From a virus (taxonomy: Duplodnaviria > Caudoviricetes), in IMG/VR virus record IMGVR_UViG_3300032053_000004, positions 1 to 64,000 of that record: DNA of 64,000 nt; one strand, 5' to 3'. A program made the translations under genes and the position numbers. The notes beneath the pieces were generated by a model that saw only the letters and a program-made list of their open reading frames with translations, ran no database searches and had not been told where the DNA came from. This document shows positions 47,236 to 60,232 of the stretch, one piece after another (within the stretch, counting starts at the first letter, position 1; each line of letters opens with the position of its first letter).

Positions 47236-47958
47236 ATGATAGCACTTGGTTTAGACCCGAGTTTGAGATCATACGGGTGGTGTGTCTATGATAGTAAAGC
47301 GGGTCCCAGAACTCGTTTAGTGGCTAGTGGTCACGATGGAACGCTGAATTCTATTGTTCCTGTTGCTAGATTTATGCATTTTCGTGCTCTTGTTCGTGAT
47401 ATAATTAAAAAGTATTCAATCGAGGCTGTCGGGATTGAGAGTCCGGCATACGGAGGAGGGCCTTTTAGCGAAGCTCATTTTGGTCTCATGATGTTTTCTT
47501 TAGAGGCCACTTTTGAGAGTCGTTTAGATTGTGTTCTTTTCGATCCCGCTACATTAAAATATTTAGCCAAATCTGATCCGAATAAAAAAGGTATATTCGG
47601 TAAATCAGATATGCAAAAATTCGTTATGATGGATACGAATTCAACGAAAACTGTAAACAATAATGAAGCTGACGCTTATTGTGTTGCTCGTTTTTGTTCT
47701 CGTATGATAGATACTGTTAATGGTAGTCTTGACCCAAATTCCTTATCTGAAACGGAAAAATCGGTTTTTATAGGAAGAACGAAAACTATTAAACGTCCTT
47801 CAGGTATTAAAATAGTTAAACGTACTGCTTATGCATTTCGGGAAAATAGTAGATTTTTTCGTTTTAGTCATGTTCCTCATGGAGACTTAAATCTTCCTCT
47901 TAAAACTCAAATAGACGAAAATCTCTTGAAGTTTCTTGAGAAAAGTGAATCTGTTTGA
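47236..47958 (+). CDS. ruvC: RuvC-like Holliday junction resolvase
   Basis: LGLDPSL..YGW, GIESP, P.TLK, K..M, NNEADAY. Confidence 0.82.
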   Translation: MIALGLDPSLRSYGWCVYDSKAGPRTRLVASGHDGTLNSIVPVARFMHFRALVRDIIKKYSIEAVGIESPAYGGGPFSEAHFGLMMFSLEATFESRLDCVLFDPATLKYLAKSDPNKKGIFGKSDMQKFVMMDTNSTKTVNNNEADAYCVARFCSRMIDTVNGSLDPNSLSETEKSVFIGRTKTIKRPSGIKIVKRTAYAFRENSRFFRFSHVPHGDLNLPLKTQIDENLLKFLEKSESV

Positions 47959-47985
47959 AATGTACGTTCGTTCACCGGAGGATTT

Positions 47986-49278
47986 ATGGCATCAAAGATA
48001 GCTCTTCACCCGAAACTTGCTCGTGTCATCAAAATGGTGGACGGCCAAGCAAACTTAAAAGACGTTATGGTCAATCCGAGTTTTCGGATTGATTGTATAA
48101 ATACTGGTAGCACAGTGATGAATATGCTCATCGGTGGGAGTCGTCTTTCTGACGGTTCGTTTGTTTGTCCTGGATGGCCTAGAGGGCATATTGTCGAGAT
48201 TTATGGTAGAGAAAGCTCTGGGAAAACGACTATTGCTTTGACTGCCATGGCGCAAGCTATTTCTGCGAACGGATGCGGTCTTTATGTTGATTTAGAATGT
48301 GCAGTTAAAGATCATTATGCCATGAAACTCGGTGTTGACTTTCGTTCTCCTGAACTTGGTGGAGGCGGTCGTGCTTTACGCGCTTCTCCTCACACGTTTG
48401 AAGAGACTGAGGCTATTGTCATGAGTGCCGCGTTAAACGGAGTCGATATAATAGTTATCGATTCTGTTGCTGGTTTAGTTTCACGTCGTGAAATATCAAG
48501 AAATCCAATCAATGAAACTGAAAAATTGGGTGTTGCTGAAATTCCTCGTTTAATGTCCGGTTGGATGCCGAAATTACAGCAAGTTATTTCACGAACTAAG
48601 ACTTTAGTTATATTTCTGAACCAGACCAGAGATAAAATCGGAGCCATGGGTTACACTGAAGAAGCTAAGAAGAGTACCACTGGAGGGAATGCTCTTAAGT
48701 TTTGGGCCGCTATACGTATGATGCTTAAGCCTAAACAATCAACAAAAGCAAAACTTTTCAACCCTCTTTTAAAGCAAGATGAAGATGTTCAAATATCGAA
48801 TGATATTGAAGCTAAAATGATTAAAAATAAGATCGATTCTCGTCAAGGACACTCAGGTTTAATCACTATTCGTTACGGGGTCGGTGTTGATGAGATGCGG
48901 ACCATGCTAAACGTTGCTCTTGCTTATGGTGTTGTGAAATCTGGGAAAAACAGCAGAAAACAAGATATTTTTTCTTTTACTTCCCCTTCAACTGGGAAGG
49001 TTATAGAAACCATCGGAATCGAAAAATTTCGTATGCAAGTTAATGCTGATAAAGATGTTTTAAATGACATGCTTTCTATAAGTACTGAGCATATTCTTCA
49101 AGGGTTTAAAGAAATTGATGATGCTCAACTTGCGGAACTTTCAGAAAATGCGGTAATCACTTCTGCTGAAGAAGAAGGAGGGGACGAGTATGAAGACTCA
49201 GGAGAGCCAAGTTTTGTTGAAGCAGCTCCTGAACAAGAAAGCGATATCAAGGCTCTCCAAGTTGAGATAGATTCATGA
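47986..49278 (+). CDS. recA: RecA recombinase
   Basis: GWPRGHIVEIYGRESSGKTT, IVIDSVAGL, IFLNQTRDKIG, TTGGNALKFWA. Confidence 0.95.
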   Translation: MASKIALHPKLARVIKMVDGQANLKDVMVNPSFRIDCINTGSTVMNMLIGGSRLSDGSFVCPGWPRGHIVEIYGRESSGKTTIALTAMAQAISANGCGLYVDLECAVKDHYAMKLGVDFRSPELGGGGRALRASPHTFEETEAIVMSAALNGVDIIVIDSVAGLVSRREISRNPINETEKLGVAEIPRLMSGWMPKLQQVISRTKTLVIFLNQTRDKIGAMGYTEEAKKSTTGGNALKFWAAIRMMLKPKQSTKAKLFNPLLKQDEDVQISNDIEAKMIKNKIDSRQGHSGLITIRYGVGVDEMRTMLNVALAYGVVKSGKNSRKQDIFSFTSPSTGKVIETIGIEKFRMQVNADKDVLNDMLSISTEHILQGFKEIDDAQLAELSENAVITSAEEEGGDEYEDSGEPSFVEAAPEQESDIKALQVEIDS

Positions 49279-50567
49279 ATCAAGACTTACATCCTATTGA
49301 AGTTAGCATACAAAATTACCAATCTATAGATAACCTTAATTTTGAAATATACGGATTCACGTGTATTACCGGAAAATCTAATATTGGTAAAAGTGCCATT
49401 GTTAGAGCTATTTCTTCAGCTTTAGTAAACAACCCTGTTGTCGGTGCAGTCAGAAAGGGTGCTTCTTTTTGTTCTGTTTTAGTTCGTTCTAATGATTGGG
49501 AACTTATTTGGGAGAAAAGTGAAAAAGGATCTGGAAAGTATCTCGTTAACGGAAAATCATATGATAAAGTTGGTCAAGGTCAGATAGAACCAGTTCAAAG
49601 TTTAGGGTTTAAATCTGTTAAAGTAGGGAGCAAAAACACTTATCCTTGGTTGGCTTCTCAATTTTCTCCTATATTCTTGTTGGATGAATCCGGCCCGGCC
49701 ATAACTGACTTCATTTCTGAAGTATCTCGTTTAAATGTTCTTCAAAATTCGATCTCAATCAGTTTAAAAGGGAAAAAGAGTGCACTCGATGAAGCTAGGA
49801 TTAAGACACTTGATGTTCAAATCGCAAAAGATAAAATATCATCTTTAAATAAACTCGATGATTTAATAAATTTAGGTTTGGACCTTGAGGCTCAAGCCAA
49901 TTCTATTAGAGAGTATGAGAGCAAAATCCTTTCAGGTCAATCGTTTATTGAAAAAATCAGTTCTCATTCTAACAAAGTTAACTCGTTATCCAGTATTGAC
50001 GGTGTTAATGTTCCTGACGATAAAATAACTCCTCTTTTTGATTATTATTTTAAAGTCCATTCCCTTTGGAAGTTGATAGATAGCGCAGCGAATAAAGTTA
50101 TTTCTATTAGGAACGGATCTAAATTAATTATTCCTGATTTGCTGGAAAAAGAGTATGACACTTTCAAGTCTGTTCAAAGATTTGAAGGATATACTGATTT
50201 AAAACAATCGGTTTCTGATTTAGACAAGTCTATGGTCATTCCTGATTTAAATTTAAATCAGGAATTTGATGAATTTAAATCTATGTCAAATCTAAATGAC
50301 AAAATCAGAGTTGTTGCTGAATCTATCATTTTCTTAAATAAGAAACTCGACGTACCTGAATCGGATGCTGATTTTGATAATTTTTCTAAGATGTCAGTCT
50401 TAAATGGAAAAATTAAAGATATCACCGATGAAATGGACGATTTGTGTTCCTCGTTTAACACTTTTGATTTTGAGTTGAAAAATTTGGAAGAAGAAATTTC
50501 TAAAATACCCTCCTGTCCATCTTGTGGTAGACCTGTATCAGATAGTCATTCAACCCACGCTTCGTAA
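49275..50567 (+). CDS. Rad50/SbcC (gp46-like) ATPase, N-terminal half ending at zinc hook
   Basis: NYQSI, Walker A GKSNIGKS, Q-loop SQFSPIFLL, coiled coil, terminal CPSCGRP; no signature or Walker B. Confidence 0.8.
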   Translation: MNQDLHPIEVSIQNYQSIDNLNFEIYGFTCITGKSNIGKSAIVRAISSALVNNPVVGAVRKGASFCSVLVRSNDWELIWEKSEKGSGKYLVNGKSYDKVGQGQIEPVQSLGFKSVKVGSKNTYPWLASQFSPIFLLDESGPAITDFISEVSRLNVLQNSISISLKGKKSALDEARIKTLDVQIAKDKISSLNKLDDLINLGLDLEAQANSIREYESKILSGQSFIEKISSHSNKVNSLSSIDGVNVPDDKITPLFDYYFKVHSLWKLIDSAANKVISIRNGSKLIIPDLLEKEYDTFKSVQRFEGYTDLKQSVSDLDKSMVIPDLNLNQEFDEFKSMSNLNDKIRVVAESIIFLNKKLDVPESDADFDNFSKMSVLNGKIKDITDEMDDLCSSFNTFDFELKNLEEEISKIPSCPSCGRPVSDSHSTHAS

Positions 50568-52436: not shown

Positions 52437-53120
52437 ATGGAAATCCACAAGAATCTTGGGTCTGGAACTGAAAAATATCGTCCGAATTTAGACGACGGGC
52501 CATCATCCTACTTTCAAAAAGCTGAAATATTCGCGAAAGAGTTTTATTCTGAAGAGTTGACTCGTATTTCTTCAACGAAATTTGAATCAGTTAGTCCTGA
52601 TTTCTTTTTTCGAGAATATATTTGGGTAGTTCATGCTACTGGCTTTTCTGCAAAAGCTGTCGGAAAATTTTTCGACAAACTTTTAAATGCTTATGGTTCA
52701 TATGCTATTTTAGCAAATGAAGATTTTTCTACTGCTTGGTCTCGAATTCAGCCTGTTTGTAATAATAAACTAAAGGCTTCTTCTATCCATAAGATGGCGA
52801 AGTTGATGACTTCTGAATTTTCCGATTGGGGAACTTTTAAATCAACCAGACTGATCTCTCCACAAACTCTTGCACAACTTCCACATGTAGGACCAGTTAC
52901 TTGTTTTCATTTAGCCAGGAATATTGGAATACTTGATTGTGTAAAGCCTGATCTTCATTTAGTTCGTATGGCTGAACACTGGGGTTTTAAAGATTGTGAT
53001 GAAATGTGTTTGAGTATTCAAAAAGAGTATGATTATCCTCTAGGAATCATAGACTTGATTTTATGGTATTCAGCCAGTACGTTTGGAACTTTAGAGATAA
53101 AGAAAGACGGTCAACGATGA
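52437..53120 (+). CDS. HhH-GPD-superfamily DNA glycosylase-like protein
   Basis: HhH LAQLPHVGPVT followed by VKPDLHLVR. Confidence 0.7.
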   Translation: MEIHKNLGSGTEKYRPNLDDGPSSYFQKAEIFAKEFYSEELTRISSTKFESVSPDFFFREYIWVVHATGFSAKAVGKFFDKLLNAYGSYAILANEDFSTAWSRIQPVCNNKLKASSIHKMAKLMTSEFSDWGTFKSTRLISPQTLAQLPHVGPVTCFHLARNIGILDCVKPDLHLVRMAEHWGFKDCDEMCLSIQKEYDYPLGIIDLILWYSASTFGTLEIKKDGQR

Positions 53121-53815
53121 AACATTATATCATTGCCTTTTCCGGGTATTCTGGTGTTGGTAAAGACGAATGCTCCGGTCAATTAGTTAGATCGTATAAT
53201 GCTATCCATACTGGTCTTGCTGATCCTGGGAAAAGACATATGGCTGACACTTATGGATGGACTGAGGAACAACTTTTCGGTCCTAGTCATTTTAGAAATG
53301 TTGGGGATATGAAATACCCTAAATTTGAAGAAATACTCCCTGGTGTTGAAGAAGGGGACCCGAAATATTATTTATCTCCTAGGGAAGCCCTTCAAAAATA
53401 TATGGGTCTCATGAATGATCTTTATCCGAATACCTGGATACAAAAAGGTGTTTATATCCATCATCAATTGGGTATAGGTGACTGTTTATATACTAGAATG
53501 GGTGGTCTTAAAATTTCATACTCAGTAATAAAAAGAAATGAGCCCGGAAAAATTTTTACGACTTTTTCAGATTTTAGGCACAAAAATGAAATATCCTATT
53601 TGAGAAAACATGGGCCTGATTCTCCGGCTAAAGTAGAGACTATCCCTATAATTGTTAGGGTCAAACGTCCATCTATACCAAATCCCCCATATGATCATCG
53701 ATCTGAAGTTGAACAATCAACTATTCCAGACTCTGAATTTGATTTTGTTATAAATAATGATTCGACTTTGGAAGAATTATATCGAAAGGTTGACGGAATA
53801 GTATCATCCCTATAA
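53117..53815 (+). CDS. Deoxynucleoside monophosphate kinase (T4 gp1-like)
   Basis: FSGYSGVGKD, LADPGK, SPREALQ, NTWI, SDFRHKNE, H.SE, VINNDSTLEEL. Confidence 0.85.
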   Translation: MKHYIIAFSGYSGVGKDECSGQLVRSYNAIHTGLADPGKRHMADTYGWTEEQLFGPSHFRNVGDMKYPKFEEILPGVEEGDPKYYLSPREALQKYMGLMNDLYPNTWIQKGVYIHHQLGIGDCLYTRMGGLKISYSVIKRNEPGKIFTTFSDFRHKNEISYLRKHGPDSPAKVETIPIIVRVKRPSIPNPPYDHRSEVEQSTIPDSEFDFVINNDSTLEELYRKVDGIVSSL

Positions 53816-56115: not shown

Positions 56116-56466
56116 TTGTATTCTATGGCAGCAATACTTGCTATGAGATGTGATAAATGTCTTGTGAAGGAAACTTGTCCTCGGTTTGGATCAAGTCCTC
56201 TCATGATCTTAAATCATCCGCATTTATGTCAAGTAATAGGTGGATATGGGAGAATCCCAATAGATCAAAGCATTCTTTCTGAAGAGTCTAAACAATCATC
56301 CGCCCAGAACGGTCCTTGTTTGACTATTGCAGAAGTCCCGACTTATGATGAAGATTCAGGAAAAGTTCGTTTTGTAATAACTAAAATATTTCATAAACCA
56401 TTTTTAAATGAAAGGGAAAGATCAGATTATCCTGTTCATTTAATATATCCGAAAAGTCCTTCATAA
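56116..56466 (+). CDS. Cys-rich hypothetical protein
   Basis: CDKC...CPRFG...C...C. Confidence 0.6.
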   Translation: MYSMAAILAMRCDKCLVKETCPRFGSSPLMILNHPHLCQVIGGYGRIPIDQSILSEESKQSSAQNGPCLTIAEVPTYDEDSGKVRFVITKIFHKPFLNERERSDYPVHLIYPKSPS

Positions 56467-57672
56467 AATACTTTGTATTTTACACCATTTCATTTGTTCT
56501 GGAAATAGAACTTTTGATAATTCGTACATTTCGTATACTATTTTTCTATATGAACTATGTCCTTCTGGTTTAATTCGAGTTTCTATTATATGATAGAGTT
56601 CTTTCATATCCATTTGAAATATAGATCTATGTAAATAACCGAGTGGTATCATATACTGAAAATATGTTTGATTATTACAAATCTCTTCGTCTTCATAATT
56701 TGCAACAGACTCTAATGTTTTCTTATATTCAAATTCAAATTCAGACCCTTTAATTTCGTCTGGGACTACATAACCATAATCGATCGTTAGAAGTTCTGAA
56801 AATTTTTCACATCTCCTATGTCTTTGAAGATCTCTAAAAGCCCCATAATCCATCATGCAGTCAAAGCTTATTTTGATTGTTTTAAAAACATCCGGGACTT
56901 GGCCTTCTCTTTTTTCCATCATTTTCGAAAATGATTCCCAACTCATCCCGTACATATCTATCACTTGAGATTCGAATGATTTTGAAATTAACTCCGGGTT
57001 TATTAAGAATGATTTAAAGATATCAACATACCAGTTTGGTTCAGATATGTTAAACTTCGAGCTTAAATTTCCTAAATTTCTTGTCTGAAACAACATGTTA
57101 TTCGGTTTAATCTCAAAAAGATTTTCTAGTATTTTTTTCAATTCACCTCCTATATCGATGAACTCACTGTTTGAATGGCCGAGTAAATTTTCGGCCATTT
57201 CTTTAGCATCTTTTAAATTTAAAGAACATATGACATTAGTTCCTGTTCCGGCAGGTAGTAGATGTCGTACGCTGTCAAACGATTTTAGCTTAACTGCAGG
57301 ATCATCTATGTCTGTTTTCAGTTCCAGTGCGTATTTTTCTGAAATAGAATCATATAACTTTCCATATGAATCATATAATCTTAGTGCAAAATTCTTCATT
57401 GTATCAGGACAACCTGGAGGGACAATGAAATCGTATGAAAATTTTTCTTTTCTAGTGCTTTTTTCTAAATAACTCGGTCTTTGCCAGGATTCTATATACT
57501 TACTTGCTATTATAGATATTCCTTCAATATTCAGAACTATATTTACTAGTTCGTTTATATTATCCAACACCCATTCTTTATTTGACTCAGGTTTTACATA
57601 CCCCATCAATATCTCCATTTGGTTCTTAATGGAGATTATGTTGCCATCATTTGTCAGGCACGATACTTTCAT
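56461..57672 (-). CDS. thyX: FAD-dependent thymidylate synthase (double-domain ThyX type)
   Basis: EKSTR, RHLLPAG, RDLQRHRR, QYMIPLG, H.IETR...GH.SYR. Confidence 0.85.
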   Translation of the reverse strand: MKVSCLTNDGNIISIKNQMEILMGYVKPESNKEWVLDNINELVNIVLNIEGISIIASKYIESWQRPSYLEKSTRKEKFSYDFIVPPGCPDTMKNFALRLYDSYGKLYDSISEKYALELKTDIDDPAVKLKSFDSVRHLLPAGTGTNVICSLNLKDAKEMAENLLGHSNSEFIDIGGELKKILENLFEIKPNNMLFQTRNLGNLSSKFNISEPNWYVDIFKSFLINPELISKSFESQVIDMYGMSWESFSKMMEKREGQVPDVFKTIKISFDCMMDYGAFRDLQRHRRCEKFSELLTIDYGYVVPDEIKGSEFEFEYKKTLESVANYEDEEICNNQTYFQYMIPLGYLHRSIFQMDMKELYHIIETRIKPEGHSSYRKIVYEMYELSKVLFPEQMKWCKIQSIL

Positions 57673-58277
57673 TTTTCTCCGGTAGTGTTAACTACATGGA
57701 CCAAGAGTTTCCTTCACTCCAAGATGAAGTTTCTAACATTAAGATTTTACACATGAAGAAACTTCATGTGTTTAAAAATGTCCCTGAATCTTTCCATCCT
57801 TGGGAGTCTAATTTATCCCCTTCAGCGTTATATAACTGTTCGTTGTCTTGTCGAAAACATATGAAAATTAAAACTCCTGAAGTAAAATGGATGAGTATTA
57901 AAAGATGGGTTACGTCAACTCCAAATGGAATAAATCTGCCGGATGGTGTATGTCTTTCTATAAAACGACGCGAATTTTTTATTGCTACTCCAGTCCCGAA
58001 AATTGAAAAACAGGAATTTATTCTTTTGATGTTCCCATACGGGAACGTTTGGAGTCAACGTTCTCTCGATGTTCCAATAGATGAAGATTGGATCTTTTCA
58101 AAGTCCAGTGATGGAAAATTGATTTTAGAATCTTTAATGTTAAAAGACGCTTCTAGACCAATACAAGGTTATTTTGAATCAGTATATAAATATATGACTG
58201 GAAATCCCGATCAAATCGGGATACACATGAAAAGGAAAAAAAGAGCGCAGACTCGGAAAAATCAAATAGGTTTGTGA
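57651..58277 (+). CDS. Hypothetical protein
   Basis: Intact ORF between thyX and purZ. Confidence 0.6.
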   Translation: MSGTILSFFSGSVNYMDQEFPSLQDEVSNIKILHMKKLHVFKNVPESFHPWESNLSPSALYNCSLSCRKHMKIKTPEVKWMSIKRWVTSTPNGINLPDGVCLSIKRREFFIATPVPKIEKQEFILLMFPYGNVWSQRSLDVPIDEDWIFSKSSDGKLILESLMLKDASRPIQGYFESVYKYMTGNPDQIGIHMKRKKRAQTRKNQIGL

Positions 58278-59480
58278 TTATTCATCTAGAAGGTTTATCA
58301 CTTCTTTATGCAACGCTCCTGTTCCAATTAAGACAACCGGAACGTTGGCTATTTCTTCTACTTTTTCAATGAATTCTCGTGACTCTTTTGAGAGATCATT
58401 GAAAACTTTTCTCCCACCTTTAAGACCTGCATCTTTCCAATTCAAATATTGTACAAAATTTATGCAGATTTTTGTCGCTCCGTTAGTTCTAACGGCATCT
58501 TTCAATCCTATCCATGAAAACGTAGAAACACGTCTAACTCGTTTTGTGACTGTTGTTCGCTCGCGTTCTTCTAAAATTTTTGCTTCAGACTCTGGCATTC
58601 CAGATTGTTTTGCTATTTGACTCCAAGTCAGTTCTTCACAATCCGGGTAAAAGTCTCCTGAGTATCCTTTTTGAACACCGTCCTCATATACGTTCCCAAC
58701 GCGTATAGGGAAAGTTCGCAAATTTAAATAAACGTCCCCCACCATTGAAGGTGGAATCGCCATATAATCCATCGCGGCTTGAAGTGTGCAGTTACGTGAT
58801 GTACATGAAGGATAATGCGACCCGTGATCTATGGATAGAGCGTATCCTTGTGATCCTTCATGGAGCAATGTTGCTCCTTCTTCAATCATTGAATGAACGA
58901 TGTTCCTGAATTCCATCGGTTGAATAATTTTTATTTTTTCAATATCTTCTGGATTTTTTTCAAGAATTTTGTTGATATCTGGATCCGTAGCATTTAAAAA
59001 ATTCACATGATTCGGGAAAGAATCCATTAAACCAACGTCCGGTTTACGAAGAATTTTGTCAGAAATGGCTGTTCCTGACCCCTGCATAGTAGAAGCCACG
59101 TGCTTCGTGGAGTCTTTTCCTTCTCTTTCTCGAGCAGCGTGTTCATTGGTTACAATGCTTGCTCTAGAATGAACATATATGTTTGGTCTTCCTGTTTCAT
59201 CCCATTCTTTTATTAATTGTTTTGGAAACAACCCTGATCCTGGAGATAAGAAACACTCCATACCGAGTCCCATCACTTTTTTAAGAATTGCTGATGTTGG
59301 TATAGCTTTCGATATGAACTTCGTCCCATTTTCGAAAACTGCTGAGTGCCCTGCATTTGGAAAATTAGCTGAAGAAACTTTTGTTACGTTATAATGGTCA
59401 GCTAACCAAGTGGATATTTTCCCTTTTCCAGAACTTCCCCAAGCTTGATCTAAAACTACGTTAAACTTTCCTGTCTTCAT
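58278..59480 (-). CDS. purZ: PurZ, 2-amino-2'-deoxyadenylosuccinate synthase (Z-base pathway)
   Basis: WGSSGKGK (Ser at PurA Asp13), PNAGHS, EGSQGY.LS..HG.YP.CT.R, RTFPIRVGN (Ile at PurA Thr271), TTVTKRVRRVSTFS, NFVQY in place of TKLD. Confidence 0.9.
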   Translation of the reverse strand: MKTGKFNVVLDQAWGSSGKGKISTWLADHYNVTKVSSANFPNAGHSAVFENGTKFISKAIPTSAILKKVMGLGMECFLSPGSGLFPKQLIKEWDETGRPNIYVHSRASIVTNEHAAREREGKDSTKHVASTMQGSGTAISDKILRKPDVGLMDSFPNHVNFLNATDPDINKILEKNPEDIEKIKIIQPMEFRNIVHSMIEEGATLLHEGSQGYALSIDHGSHYPSCTSRNCTLQAAMDYMAIPPSMVGDVYLNLRTFPIRVGNVYEDGVQKGYSGDFYPDCEELTWSQIAKQSGMPESEAKILEERERTTVTKRVRRVSTFSWIGLKDAVRTNGATKICINFVQYLNWKDAGLKGGRKVFNDLSKESREFIEKVEEIANVPVVLIGTGALHKEVINLLDE

Positions 59481-59494
59481 GCTTAACAGTACAC

Positions 59495-60232
59495 TTACGT
59501 TCTTCTTCTAAGAGATTCTTGTTCGATTTTGGAAACTCTGGTTTGCCCGTGATTTTTTGAGATTCTCGCTAAATCAATTTTTTCCGAATATTTGACTATA
59601 CTATATTTACTGTCTTTATTCCCCAATGCTATTAATTTTGCTCCGGATATCTCTTTAGCGGTAAACTCTCTGCCTATTAGTTGAAGTTTTCTTCTTTTGT
59701 TCAATCTATTAGCCCATTTTATCTTTAAGTATCTTCTTATTGCTTTTTCAGACATGAATGATACTTTAATTGTCATATCCGAAGGAATTGTCCTATACAT
59801 TCTTAAGGACATTCGACACCCGAAATCACATGCCAGAGCAAAAGCTTCTTGATAAGAAACGGCTCTTATCAAGACATGTGATAATTTATACTTTTCAGGA
59901 TAAATAGCTCTCCAAATTTTTGTATCTTCAGTGCTTTCAGAAATTAATTTACTTAATGTGTCTTCTCCATAACTTGGGAAAGCTAAACTCATAGAGGCGT
60001 CATAAAGTTGGTCGAATCTTGTTTTCCCGATTTTTAATGCTTTTTGCGGGACGTTTTTTATCAATTCAATTGGTACAGCGTTATTTATTATTAAATCAAC
60101 GATCATATTTTTGAAGTATTCTGTATCTTTTTCTAGTCCGATGTTCTTTTTTAAATATTGTATTACTTCAGATTCTATTTCATGTCTTTTATGTTTTTTC
60201 ATTGTAATGTGTTTCCATGTCAGCTGTAACAA
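59495..60232 (-). CDS. Hypothetical basic protein
   Basis: Intact 245-aa ORF upstream of purZ; start probably ~60205. Confidence 0.65.
   Translation of the reverse strand: MLQLTWKHITMKKHKRHEIESEVIQYLKKNIGLEKDTEYFKNMIVDLIINNAVPIELIKNVPQKALKIGKTRFDQLYDASMSLAFPSYGEDTLSKLISESTEDTKIWRAIYPEKYKLSHVLIRAVSYQEAFALACDFGCRMSLRMYRTIPSDMTIKVSFMSEKAIRRYLKIKWANRLNKRRKLQLIGREFTAKEISGAKLIALGNKDSKYSIVKYSEKIDLARISKNHGQTRVSKIEQESLRRRT

Follow-up and report, generated by a model that had tools for sequence, protein, structure and literature searches.

A PurZ-type gene in a fragment of a huge phage genome

The DNA analysed here, a stretch of 64,000 nucleotides that we call the window, comprises positions 1 to 64,000 of the IMG/VR virus record IMGVR_UViG_3300032053_000004. 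On its minus strand, at 58278–59480, lies an open reading frame (ORF) of 400 amino acids with an ATG start whose product is a homologue of PurZ, the succino-amino-deoxyadenylate synthase of phages that carry 2-aminoadenine (Z) instead of adenine. An earlier interpretation made from the letters alone (the sequence-only reading) had called this ORF purZ, and family comparisons bear out that call. The protein falls within the adenylosuccinate synthetase fold (PF00709, E-value 4.9e-35) and matches PHROG 1211, ‘2-aminooxy adenylosuccinate synthetase’, with an E-value of 3.3e-57. Its top NCBIfam model is PurZ (NF038379, 189 bits, which does not reach the 300-bit cut-off), followed by the archaeal-type PurA model (175 bits), and it scores 133 bits against TIGR00184 (purA), for which the cut-off is 396. 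The nearest solved structures by sequence are those of phiVC8 PurZ (6FM1, 6FKO and 6TNH) and S-2L PurZ (7ODX), and then Pyrococcus PurA.

The characterised PurZ enzymes of S-2L and phiVC8 share the fold of the window PurZ at an identity of only about 30%, and the homologues found in cultured phages, the majority of which are known Z phages, are all less than 33% identical to it. The characterised enzymes have 343–359 amino acids, whereas the window PurZ has insertions after residue 150 and around the PIRVG loop. They also come from genomes about ten times smaller, and the window gene, unlike theirs, does not adjoin datZ, mazZ or dpoZ. The ORF is intact and keeps every invariant residue. That 58278–59480 encodes an intact PurZ-type enzyme, which by its sequence would sit on a previously uncharacterised branch of the family, is well supported.

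Active-site residues and nucleotide pocket

We aligned the window PurZ with the PurZ proteins of phiVC8 and S-2L, two PurZ0 proteins and E. coli PurA. The four motifs on which the sequence-only reading had been built (GSSGKG, PIRV, TTVTKRxRR, and NFxQY in place of TKLD) can all be read in the translation and in the alignment. The P-loop is GSSGKG, and its Ser16 aligns with the catalytic Asp of PurA (D14 of E. coli in the numbering of the translated sequence) and with S14 of phiVC8 PurZ. The aspartate loop is TTVTKRVRR, FPIRVG is also present, and NFVQY is aligned to the TKLD motif that specifies guanine in E. coli. Canonical PurA, in contrast, carries the catalytic Asp in GDEGKG and an (N/T)KxD guanine motif, both of which are missing from the window PurZ. 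Among 269 homologues retrieved, the 243 with a readable P-loop all have Ser at the catalytic position and none has Asp. The Asp-to-Ser change has been used to delimit the PurZ group: Ser occupies the position of the PurA catalytic Asp13 in 100% of 147 phage PurZ-group sequences, and the PurA group has Asp there in 99% (PMC12884076).

Positions singled out by structures and by a dZ-enrichment study were then compared between phiVC8 PurZ and the window PurZ. The phiVC8 residues F12, S14, P144, P233 and Y244 correspond to W14, S16, P147, P258 and Y278, and W252, T262, S273, F295 and Y298 correspond to W286, T309, T320, F342 and Y345. All are identical except F12, which is replaced by Trp, and S273, which is replaced by Thr as in S-2L PurZ; the only departures from the phage state are at I34 (to Ser) and G256 (to Ala). 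TTVTK(R/K)xRR, N-F-x-x-Y and, in phiVC8 numbering, W252, T262, Y244 and P233 are thus common to the characterised PurZ enzymes and the window PurZ. Conservation extends to the residues in contact with the 2-amino group and with the base of ATP. The PIRVG loop shapes the sugar pocket in PurZ (PMC8342488), and the clade-specific insertions of the window PurZ lie beside this loop.

PurZ0 proteins have the Ser-type active site in common with the window PurZ, but at the position of NFVQY they carry an (S/T)-M-x-D-Q nucleoside triphosphate (NTP) pocket that is not found here. The two NTP-pocket positions are Phe and Tyr in the window PurZ (F342 and Y345) and in phiVC8, Met and Gln in PurZ0, and Lys and Val in E. 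coli. These residues and the tree placement described below agree with the earlier suggestion of an ATP-type rather than a PurZ0-type pocket. Published accounts of nucleotide preference disagree: one gives the preferences of PurZ0 and PurZ as ‘ATP and GTP, respectively’ (PMC12884076), whereas another reports that S-2L PurZ uses ATP or dATP (PMC8342488). Our reading of nucleotide use follows the latter paper and the pocket residues, not the former statement.

Phylogenetic position

A tree of PurA, PurZ0 and PurZ, which the sequence-only reading had named as a check, was built by maximum likelihood in IQ-TREE (LG+C20 with posterior mean site frequencies, PMSF) from 87 rows and with the PurA proteins of E. 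coli and Staphylococcus serving as the root. The window PurZ groups with neither PurA nor PurZ0. The Ser-type group is separated at 100/97 from the two bacterial PurA proteins and from the Asp-type PurA-like proteins of large phages, those of Alice (153 kb), TM30 (208 kb) and phiTY18 (191 kb). These PurA-like proteins (of Bixzunavirus members such as Alice, and of Rhizobium phage RHph_TM30) have the same fold and are encoded in phage genomes of at least 150 kb, but they keep the catalytic Asp and lie outside the Ser-type group, whereas the window PurZ has Ser and lies inside it. Within that group PurZ0 branches first, and the other 80 rows, including S-2L, phiVC8 and the window PurZ, are held together at 99/95. 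The classical PurZ clade (S-2L, phiVC8 and Bm1) is supported at 100/99; the window PurZ stands apart from it in a 33-row clade supported at 98/98. Since it falls inside the 99/95 clade with S-2L and phiVC8, from which PurZ0 is excluded, the window protein can, by tree position, be called a PurZ if the name is taken broadly.

Distribution in a lineage of huge phages

In a collection clustered at 90% identity, 1020 proteins match the window PurZ at E < 1e-10, and 239 clusters at 50% identity match it at E < 1e-30. Many homologues are 62–70% identical to it and lie on contigs of 300–445 kb. The window’s own record (G000) is a linear IMG/VR contig of 202,143 bp, 47% complete according to CheckV, and appears to be a fragment of a phage of roughly 430 kb; its complete relatives, which have terminal repeats, measure 363–436 kb. 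The large-genome setting proposed from the letters is in this way borne out. On this distribution, purZ is evidently a core gene of a lineage of 360–445 kb phages, and therefore these giants probably also make Z-DNA. The stretch itself is present in 24 sediment-metagenome runs, all stored as contigs, and no RNA dataset is among the runs that hold it.

Several PurZ homologues of huge phages (P0121, P0123, P0129 and P0139) reach 750–1200 amino acids because they contain one or two inteins with LAGLIDADG homing endonucleases, inserted at two or more different sites. Inteins typically reside in important genes of replication and nucleotide metabolism.

Further homologues occur outside the huge phages. 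The cultured Flavobacterium phage MaF61 (167.8 kb) encodes, between its scaffold and terminase genes, a Ser-type homologue of 447 amino acids (GSSGKG, NFVNY; locus L003, 7983–9326) that belongs to the PurZ clade; the paper describing this phage says nothing of a PurZ-like gene or of DNA modification. The chromosomes of the myxobacteria Sorangium sp. So ce131 (L026, 3001–4871) and Chondromyces apiculatus (L025) carry a Ser-type homologue 42% identical to the window PurZ. In Sorangium it overlaps a downstream fusion gene, the C-terminal half of which is a dUTPase and which is followed by an HNH-like ORF, and for this reason the locus looks like a prophage Z-cluster. In G022, a 100-kb phage with direct terminal repeats, purZ (L013, 10001–11415) is directly followed by a gene for a DUF6378 protein (E-value 5e-22) and then by the portal gene; a further possible partner in Z-clusters is thus DUF6378. 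The contexts of these distant members of the clade (Sorangium and G022) suggest nucleotide-pool editing of a Z-cluster-like kind. A distant huge phage, the 345-kb G014, which was found via its RecA, has no PurZ and instead encodes an Asp-type, PurA-like protein with GDECKG (L135, 2594–3694). This protein scores 122 bits with the PurA model and 36 bits with the PurZ model, the reverse of the order seen for the window PurZ.

A putative helper pair in the relatives

In the characterised Z phages, PurZ is normally accompanied by DatZ, an HD-family dATP triphosphohydrolase, and MazZ, a MazG-type pyrophosphohydrolase. The sequence-only reading had seen no HD or MazG-like gene in the window, and profile searches extend that statement to the whole 202-kb record, which has no match to PF01966, PF03819, PF12917, PF04447, PF00692, PF19905 or the relatives’ MazG-like profile. 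The record is likewise without an HD, MazG, DUF550, dUTPase or DUF6378 gene, NDT and DUF5664 lying outside this search. As a control, PF12917 finds the DatZ proteins of phiVC8, S-2L and Bm1.

In all five complete close relatives, and in seven fragments besides, the same PF12917 search finds a YfbR-like HD protein (E-values 1e-14 to 1e-25). In 12 of the 12 relatives that have either gene, the HD gene adjoins a conserved gene of about 170 codons with MazG-type motifs, and the metal-binding residues of both proteins are kept. The earlier description of purZ without datZ and mazZ consequently stands for this contig but not for its lineage, in which every complete close relative carries the pair. 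Some 200 kb separate the pair from purZ, and some 10 kb separate it from the gene for the family-A DNA polymerase PolA; a block of RuvC-like, RecA and SbcC-like genes lies 2–7 kb upstream of it.

The HD protein of the relatives and S-2L DatZ (6ZPA) are members of one superfamily (YfbR-like/HD_3), and the partner of this HD protein is, like S-2L MazZ (7ODY), an all-alpha MazG-type pyrophosphohydrolase. The best solved match of the HD profile is E. coli YfbR, a 5′-deoxynucleotidase (1e-11), and DatZ follows at only 2e-4; the profile of the partner finds MazG-like proteins and dCTP pyrophosphatase 1 (DCTPP1), and reaches MazZ at only 0.53. Because of these distant matches, we regard the two proteins as predicted analogues drawn from the DatZ and MazZ superfamilies, not as orthologues. 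Five of the records that are at least 90% complete have both PurZ and the pair, four (including G014) have neither, and none has the pair only, which makes the co-distribution suggestive.

The missing half of the genome

The absence of the pair from the window’s contig was considered against the map of a complete 427-kb relative (G001). The record is collinear with G001 243–411 kb over its positions 51.6–202 kb, and its 45–50.5 kb correspond, inverted, to G001 52–59 kb. In contrast, G001 1–52 kb, the segment that contains PolA and the pair, has almost no counterpart on the record, one ORF being matched. At the breakpoint, about 50.6–51.6 kb, the RecA/SbcC block runs straight into the purZ block, unlike in the complete relatives. 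The same joined architecture is present in a second fragment, the 183-kb G013, in which RecA lies about 18 kb from purZ. Synteny with G001 would place the helper pair about 64 kb past the right end of the record.

PolA is present in all seven pair-bearing records tested, about 10 kb from the pair, and it is missing, like the pair itself, from three PurZ-bearing fragments (G000, G013 and G020). The G000 and G013 contigs are 43–47% complete. Because PolA and the whole surrounding segment are missing along with the pair, its absence is best explained by an incomplete contig; the PolA and pair segment most likely lies off-contig, in the half of the genome that the record does not cover.

Polymerase and adenylosuccinate lyase

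The sequence-only reading had also named a search for a Z-selective polymerase. This contig has no PolA, and the relatives’ PolA scores 51 bits against DpoZ_1, for which the cut-off is 500 and the phiVC8 control gives 909 bits; judged by this profile, it is not a DpoZ. A single family search for the Pol III alpha subunit (PF07733) found none in this record or in four complete relatives. DpoZ is present in many Z phages, though not in all. S-2L, according to PMC8065100, attains full substitution with a non-selective PrimPol combined with removal of dATP, so a selective polymerase is not required for full substitution.

A bona fide adenylosuccinate lyase, PurB (TIGR00928, cut-off 326), is encoded by two of four complete relatives searched, G001 (L134, 1546–2967; 474 bits) and G008 (L136, 1120–2571; 418 bits), and was not found in the other two or on this contig. 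PurB in these relatives would fit the second step of a Z pathway, and would also fit ordinary AMP synthesis.

The purZ neighbourhood

The order of genes around purZ is conserved in 9–10 relatives: two large ORFs, a 245-aa ORF, purZ, a 208-aa ORF, a ThyX-like gene and, further on, a gene resembling deoxynucleoside monophosphate (dNMP) kinases. The 245-aa ORF (59495–60232, minus strand), to which no function is assigned, lies directly upstream of purZ across a 14-nt gap and adjoins it in 10 of 12 loci. It is 42–51% identical among nine sequences and has no Pfam, NCBIfam or PHROG match, and its AlphaFold2 (AF2) model is poor (pLDDT 56.8) and unfit for a structure search. The 208-aa ORF (57651–58277, plus strand), also of unassigned function, abuts the purZ stop codon in convergent orientation, adjoins purZ in 9 of 12 loci and has 54 invariant columns among nine sequences. 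Its AF2 model is good (pLDDT 82.4), yet no PDB structure was matched by Foldseek at E ≤ 0.001, and VIA-align gave a wide Z of 3.3 at best.

Next to it lies a homologue of the flavin-dependent thymidylate synthase ThyX (56461–57672, minus strand; 403 amino acids), with a long N-terminal extension and a PF02511 match (E-value 3.5e-20) over residues 260–392; this gene is a conserved neighbour of purZ in nine loci. A P-loop kinase weakly resembling T4-type dNMP kinase, and a candidate kinase for a modified dNMP, is encoded at 53063–53815 (plus strand) and has counterparts within the purZ block in five loci. Its PF21448 score (23.3 bits) is under the cut-off of 27.1, and its profile matches T4 dNMP kinase (1DEK) with an E-value of 4e-4 through the N-terminal P-loop only. 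The block of RuvC-like, RecA and SbcC-like ATPase genes, recognised from family matches and synteny, occupies 47236–50567 (plus strand). Of the accompanying genes that the sequence-only reading had listed, recA (PF00154, E-value 6.7e-45) and thyX are secure, whereas ruvC (E-value 0.028) and the dNMP kinase are matched only weakly. No further base-modifying enzyme was identified beside purZ.

A proposed route to Z-DNA and its alternatives

The family assignment, diagnostic residues, tree position, conservation, synteny and co-distribution described above are observed directly. Taking them together, we lean towards the view that 2-aminoadenine takes the place of adenine, fully or partly, in the DNA of the 360–445 kb lineage. 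The most far-reaching form of this view, in which replacement would be complete and lineage-wide and would rely on a deeply branching PurZ, on a family-A polymerase of the ordinary kind and on a MazG-like/YfbR-like module recruited by convergence in place of DatZ and MazZ, is a tentative proposal to which we give slightly less than an even chance.

From these observations we infer which substrate the enzyme uses, what the two helper proteins do and that virion DNA contains Z, and we propose the following model. The PurZ-type enzyme would condense deoxyguanosine monophosphate (dGMP) with aspartate to N6-succino-2-amino-2′-deoxyadenylate, most likely with ATP or dATP. Adenylosuccinate lyase, from the host or the phage PurB where one is encoded, would convert this product to the Z deoxynucleoside monophosphate (dZMP), and kinases, possibly including the neighbouring dNMP-kinase-like protein, would raise dZMP to the triphosphate dZTP for incorporation by the ordinary phage family-A polymerase. 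The MazG-like pyrophosphohydrolase could turn dGTP into the dGMP that feeds PurZ, doing the job of MazZ by another route, and together with the YfbR-like 5′-deoxynucleotidase could take dATP through dAMP to deoxyadenosine, removing the competitor as DatZ does. The same two-gene module is probably present in the missing half of this genome. This putative route resembles the logic of PurZ0 phages, in which dATP is cleared in two steps through dAMP by DutZ and then DmtZ (PMC12884076).

Several points weigh against the proposal. The PurZ model score is below its cut-off, the window PurZ is about 50 residues longer than the characterised enzymes, and its 33-row clade has no characterised member. 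The tree was built without archaeal PurA, a genome-contig scan for which gave only two contigs of metagenome-assembled genomes (MAGs) and two myxobacterial loci. The polymerase of the relatives is by its profile score not a DpoZ, their HD and MazG-like proteins are predicted analogues of DatZ and MazZ, and the pair is missing from the window’s own contig. Moreover, two complete but more distant PurZ-bearing phages (G021 and G022) are without the pair, and the co-occurrence of PurZ and the pair is not phylogenetically independent because it is confined to one clade.

Some of these points bear on an alternative in which dZMP or a related 6-aminated purine is made but the genome is only partly substituted, or the product has a different use, for example as a purine that is modified further, a nucleotide-pool decoy or an inhibitor. 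A generic PolA rather than a DpoZ, YfbR-like and MazG-like helpers of unassigned specificity instead of DatZ and MazZ, two conserved ORFs without an assigned function on either side of purZ, and insertions beside the loop that shapes the sugar pocket are what such a phage might display. Full substitution of S-2L without a selective polymerase (PMC8065100) runs counter to the first of these points; the conserved contacts to the 2-amino group and the ATP base, and the lack of an extra base-modifying enzyme identified beside purZ, also speak for Z itself, and we consider this alternative unlikely, though likelier than the two that follow.

The gene could instead be a PurA-like auxiliary metabolic gene whose product converts inosine monophosphate (IMP) to adenylosuccinate and so boosts AMP and dATP for a very large genome with canonical DNA. 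Large phages do carry PurA-like proteins (mycobacteriophage Alice, Rhizobium phage TM30, Vibrio phage phiTY18 and the 345-kb G014), two relatives encode PurB, and the archaeal-type PurA model comes near the PurZ model (175 versus 189 bits). However, the PurA-like proteins of large phages all keep GD(E/A)(G/C)KG and are separated from the Ser-type group at 100/97, the window PurZ has neither the catalytic Asp nor the TKLD guanine motif, and the G014 protein scores with the two models in the opposite order (122 bits for PurA, 36 for PurZ). These differences make a PurA-like function quite improbable.

Loss of the helper pair from this phage and from G013, which would leave PurZ as a remnant or acting alone with low incorporation of Z, would match the absence of the pair from both contigs and their shared rearrangement, in which the RecA block meets the purZ block at the very place that the pair occupies in the relatives, but it is very improbable given that both contigs are only 43–47% complete and lack PolA as well, that G001 1–52 kb is nearly without counterpart on G000, and that PurZ is intact with all its invariant residues.

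Implications of a possible Z genome of this size

In the open literature searched, Z-genomes are described only in small siphoviruses and podoviruses, and no paper links PurZ to jumbo or huge phages. If replacement of adenine in this lineage is confirmed, these genomes would far exceed in size all others proposed to carry 2-aminoadenine in place of adenine, and whole-genome base replacement would scale to genomes of about 0.4 Mb with their own replication, recombination and nucleotide-metabolism machinery. With its nucleotide-pool enzymes, the lineage would contribute a third set, assembled independently, to the picture of ‘functional convergence’ (PMC12884076). Its PurZ enzymes would form a large new family that could be used, with the candidate dATP/dGTP hydrolases, for the production of Z-DNA. 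For metagenomics it would matter that such phages withstand many restriction enzymes and could be miscalled in native-DNA sequencing.

Composition of the window

Positions 1–36000 of the window differ from most of the remaining record in composition, with 45–60% G+C in 2-kb windows versus 31–42%, and contain short overlapping ORFs on both strands. Comparable high-G+C islands occur at about 104–108, 122–136 and 156–160 kb of the record. This part of the window maps only loosely to G001 171–224 kb, four of its ORFs matching one spot of G001 at 223.5–223.8 kb.

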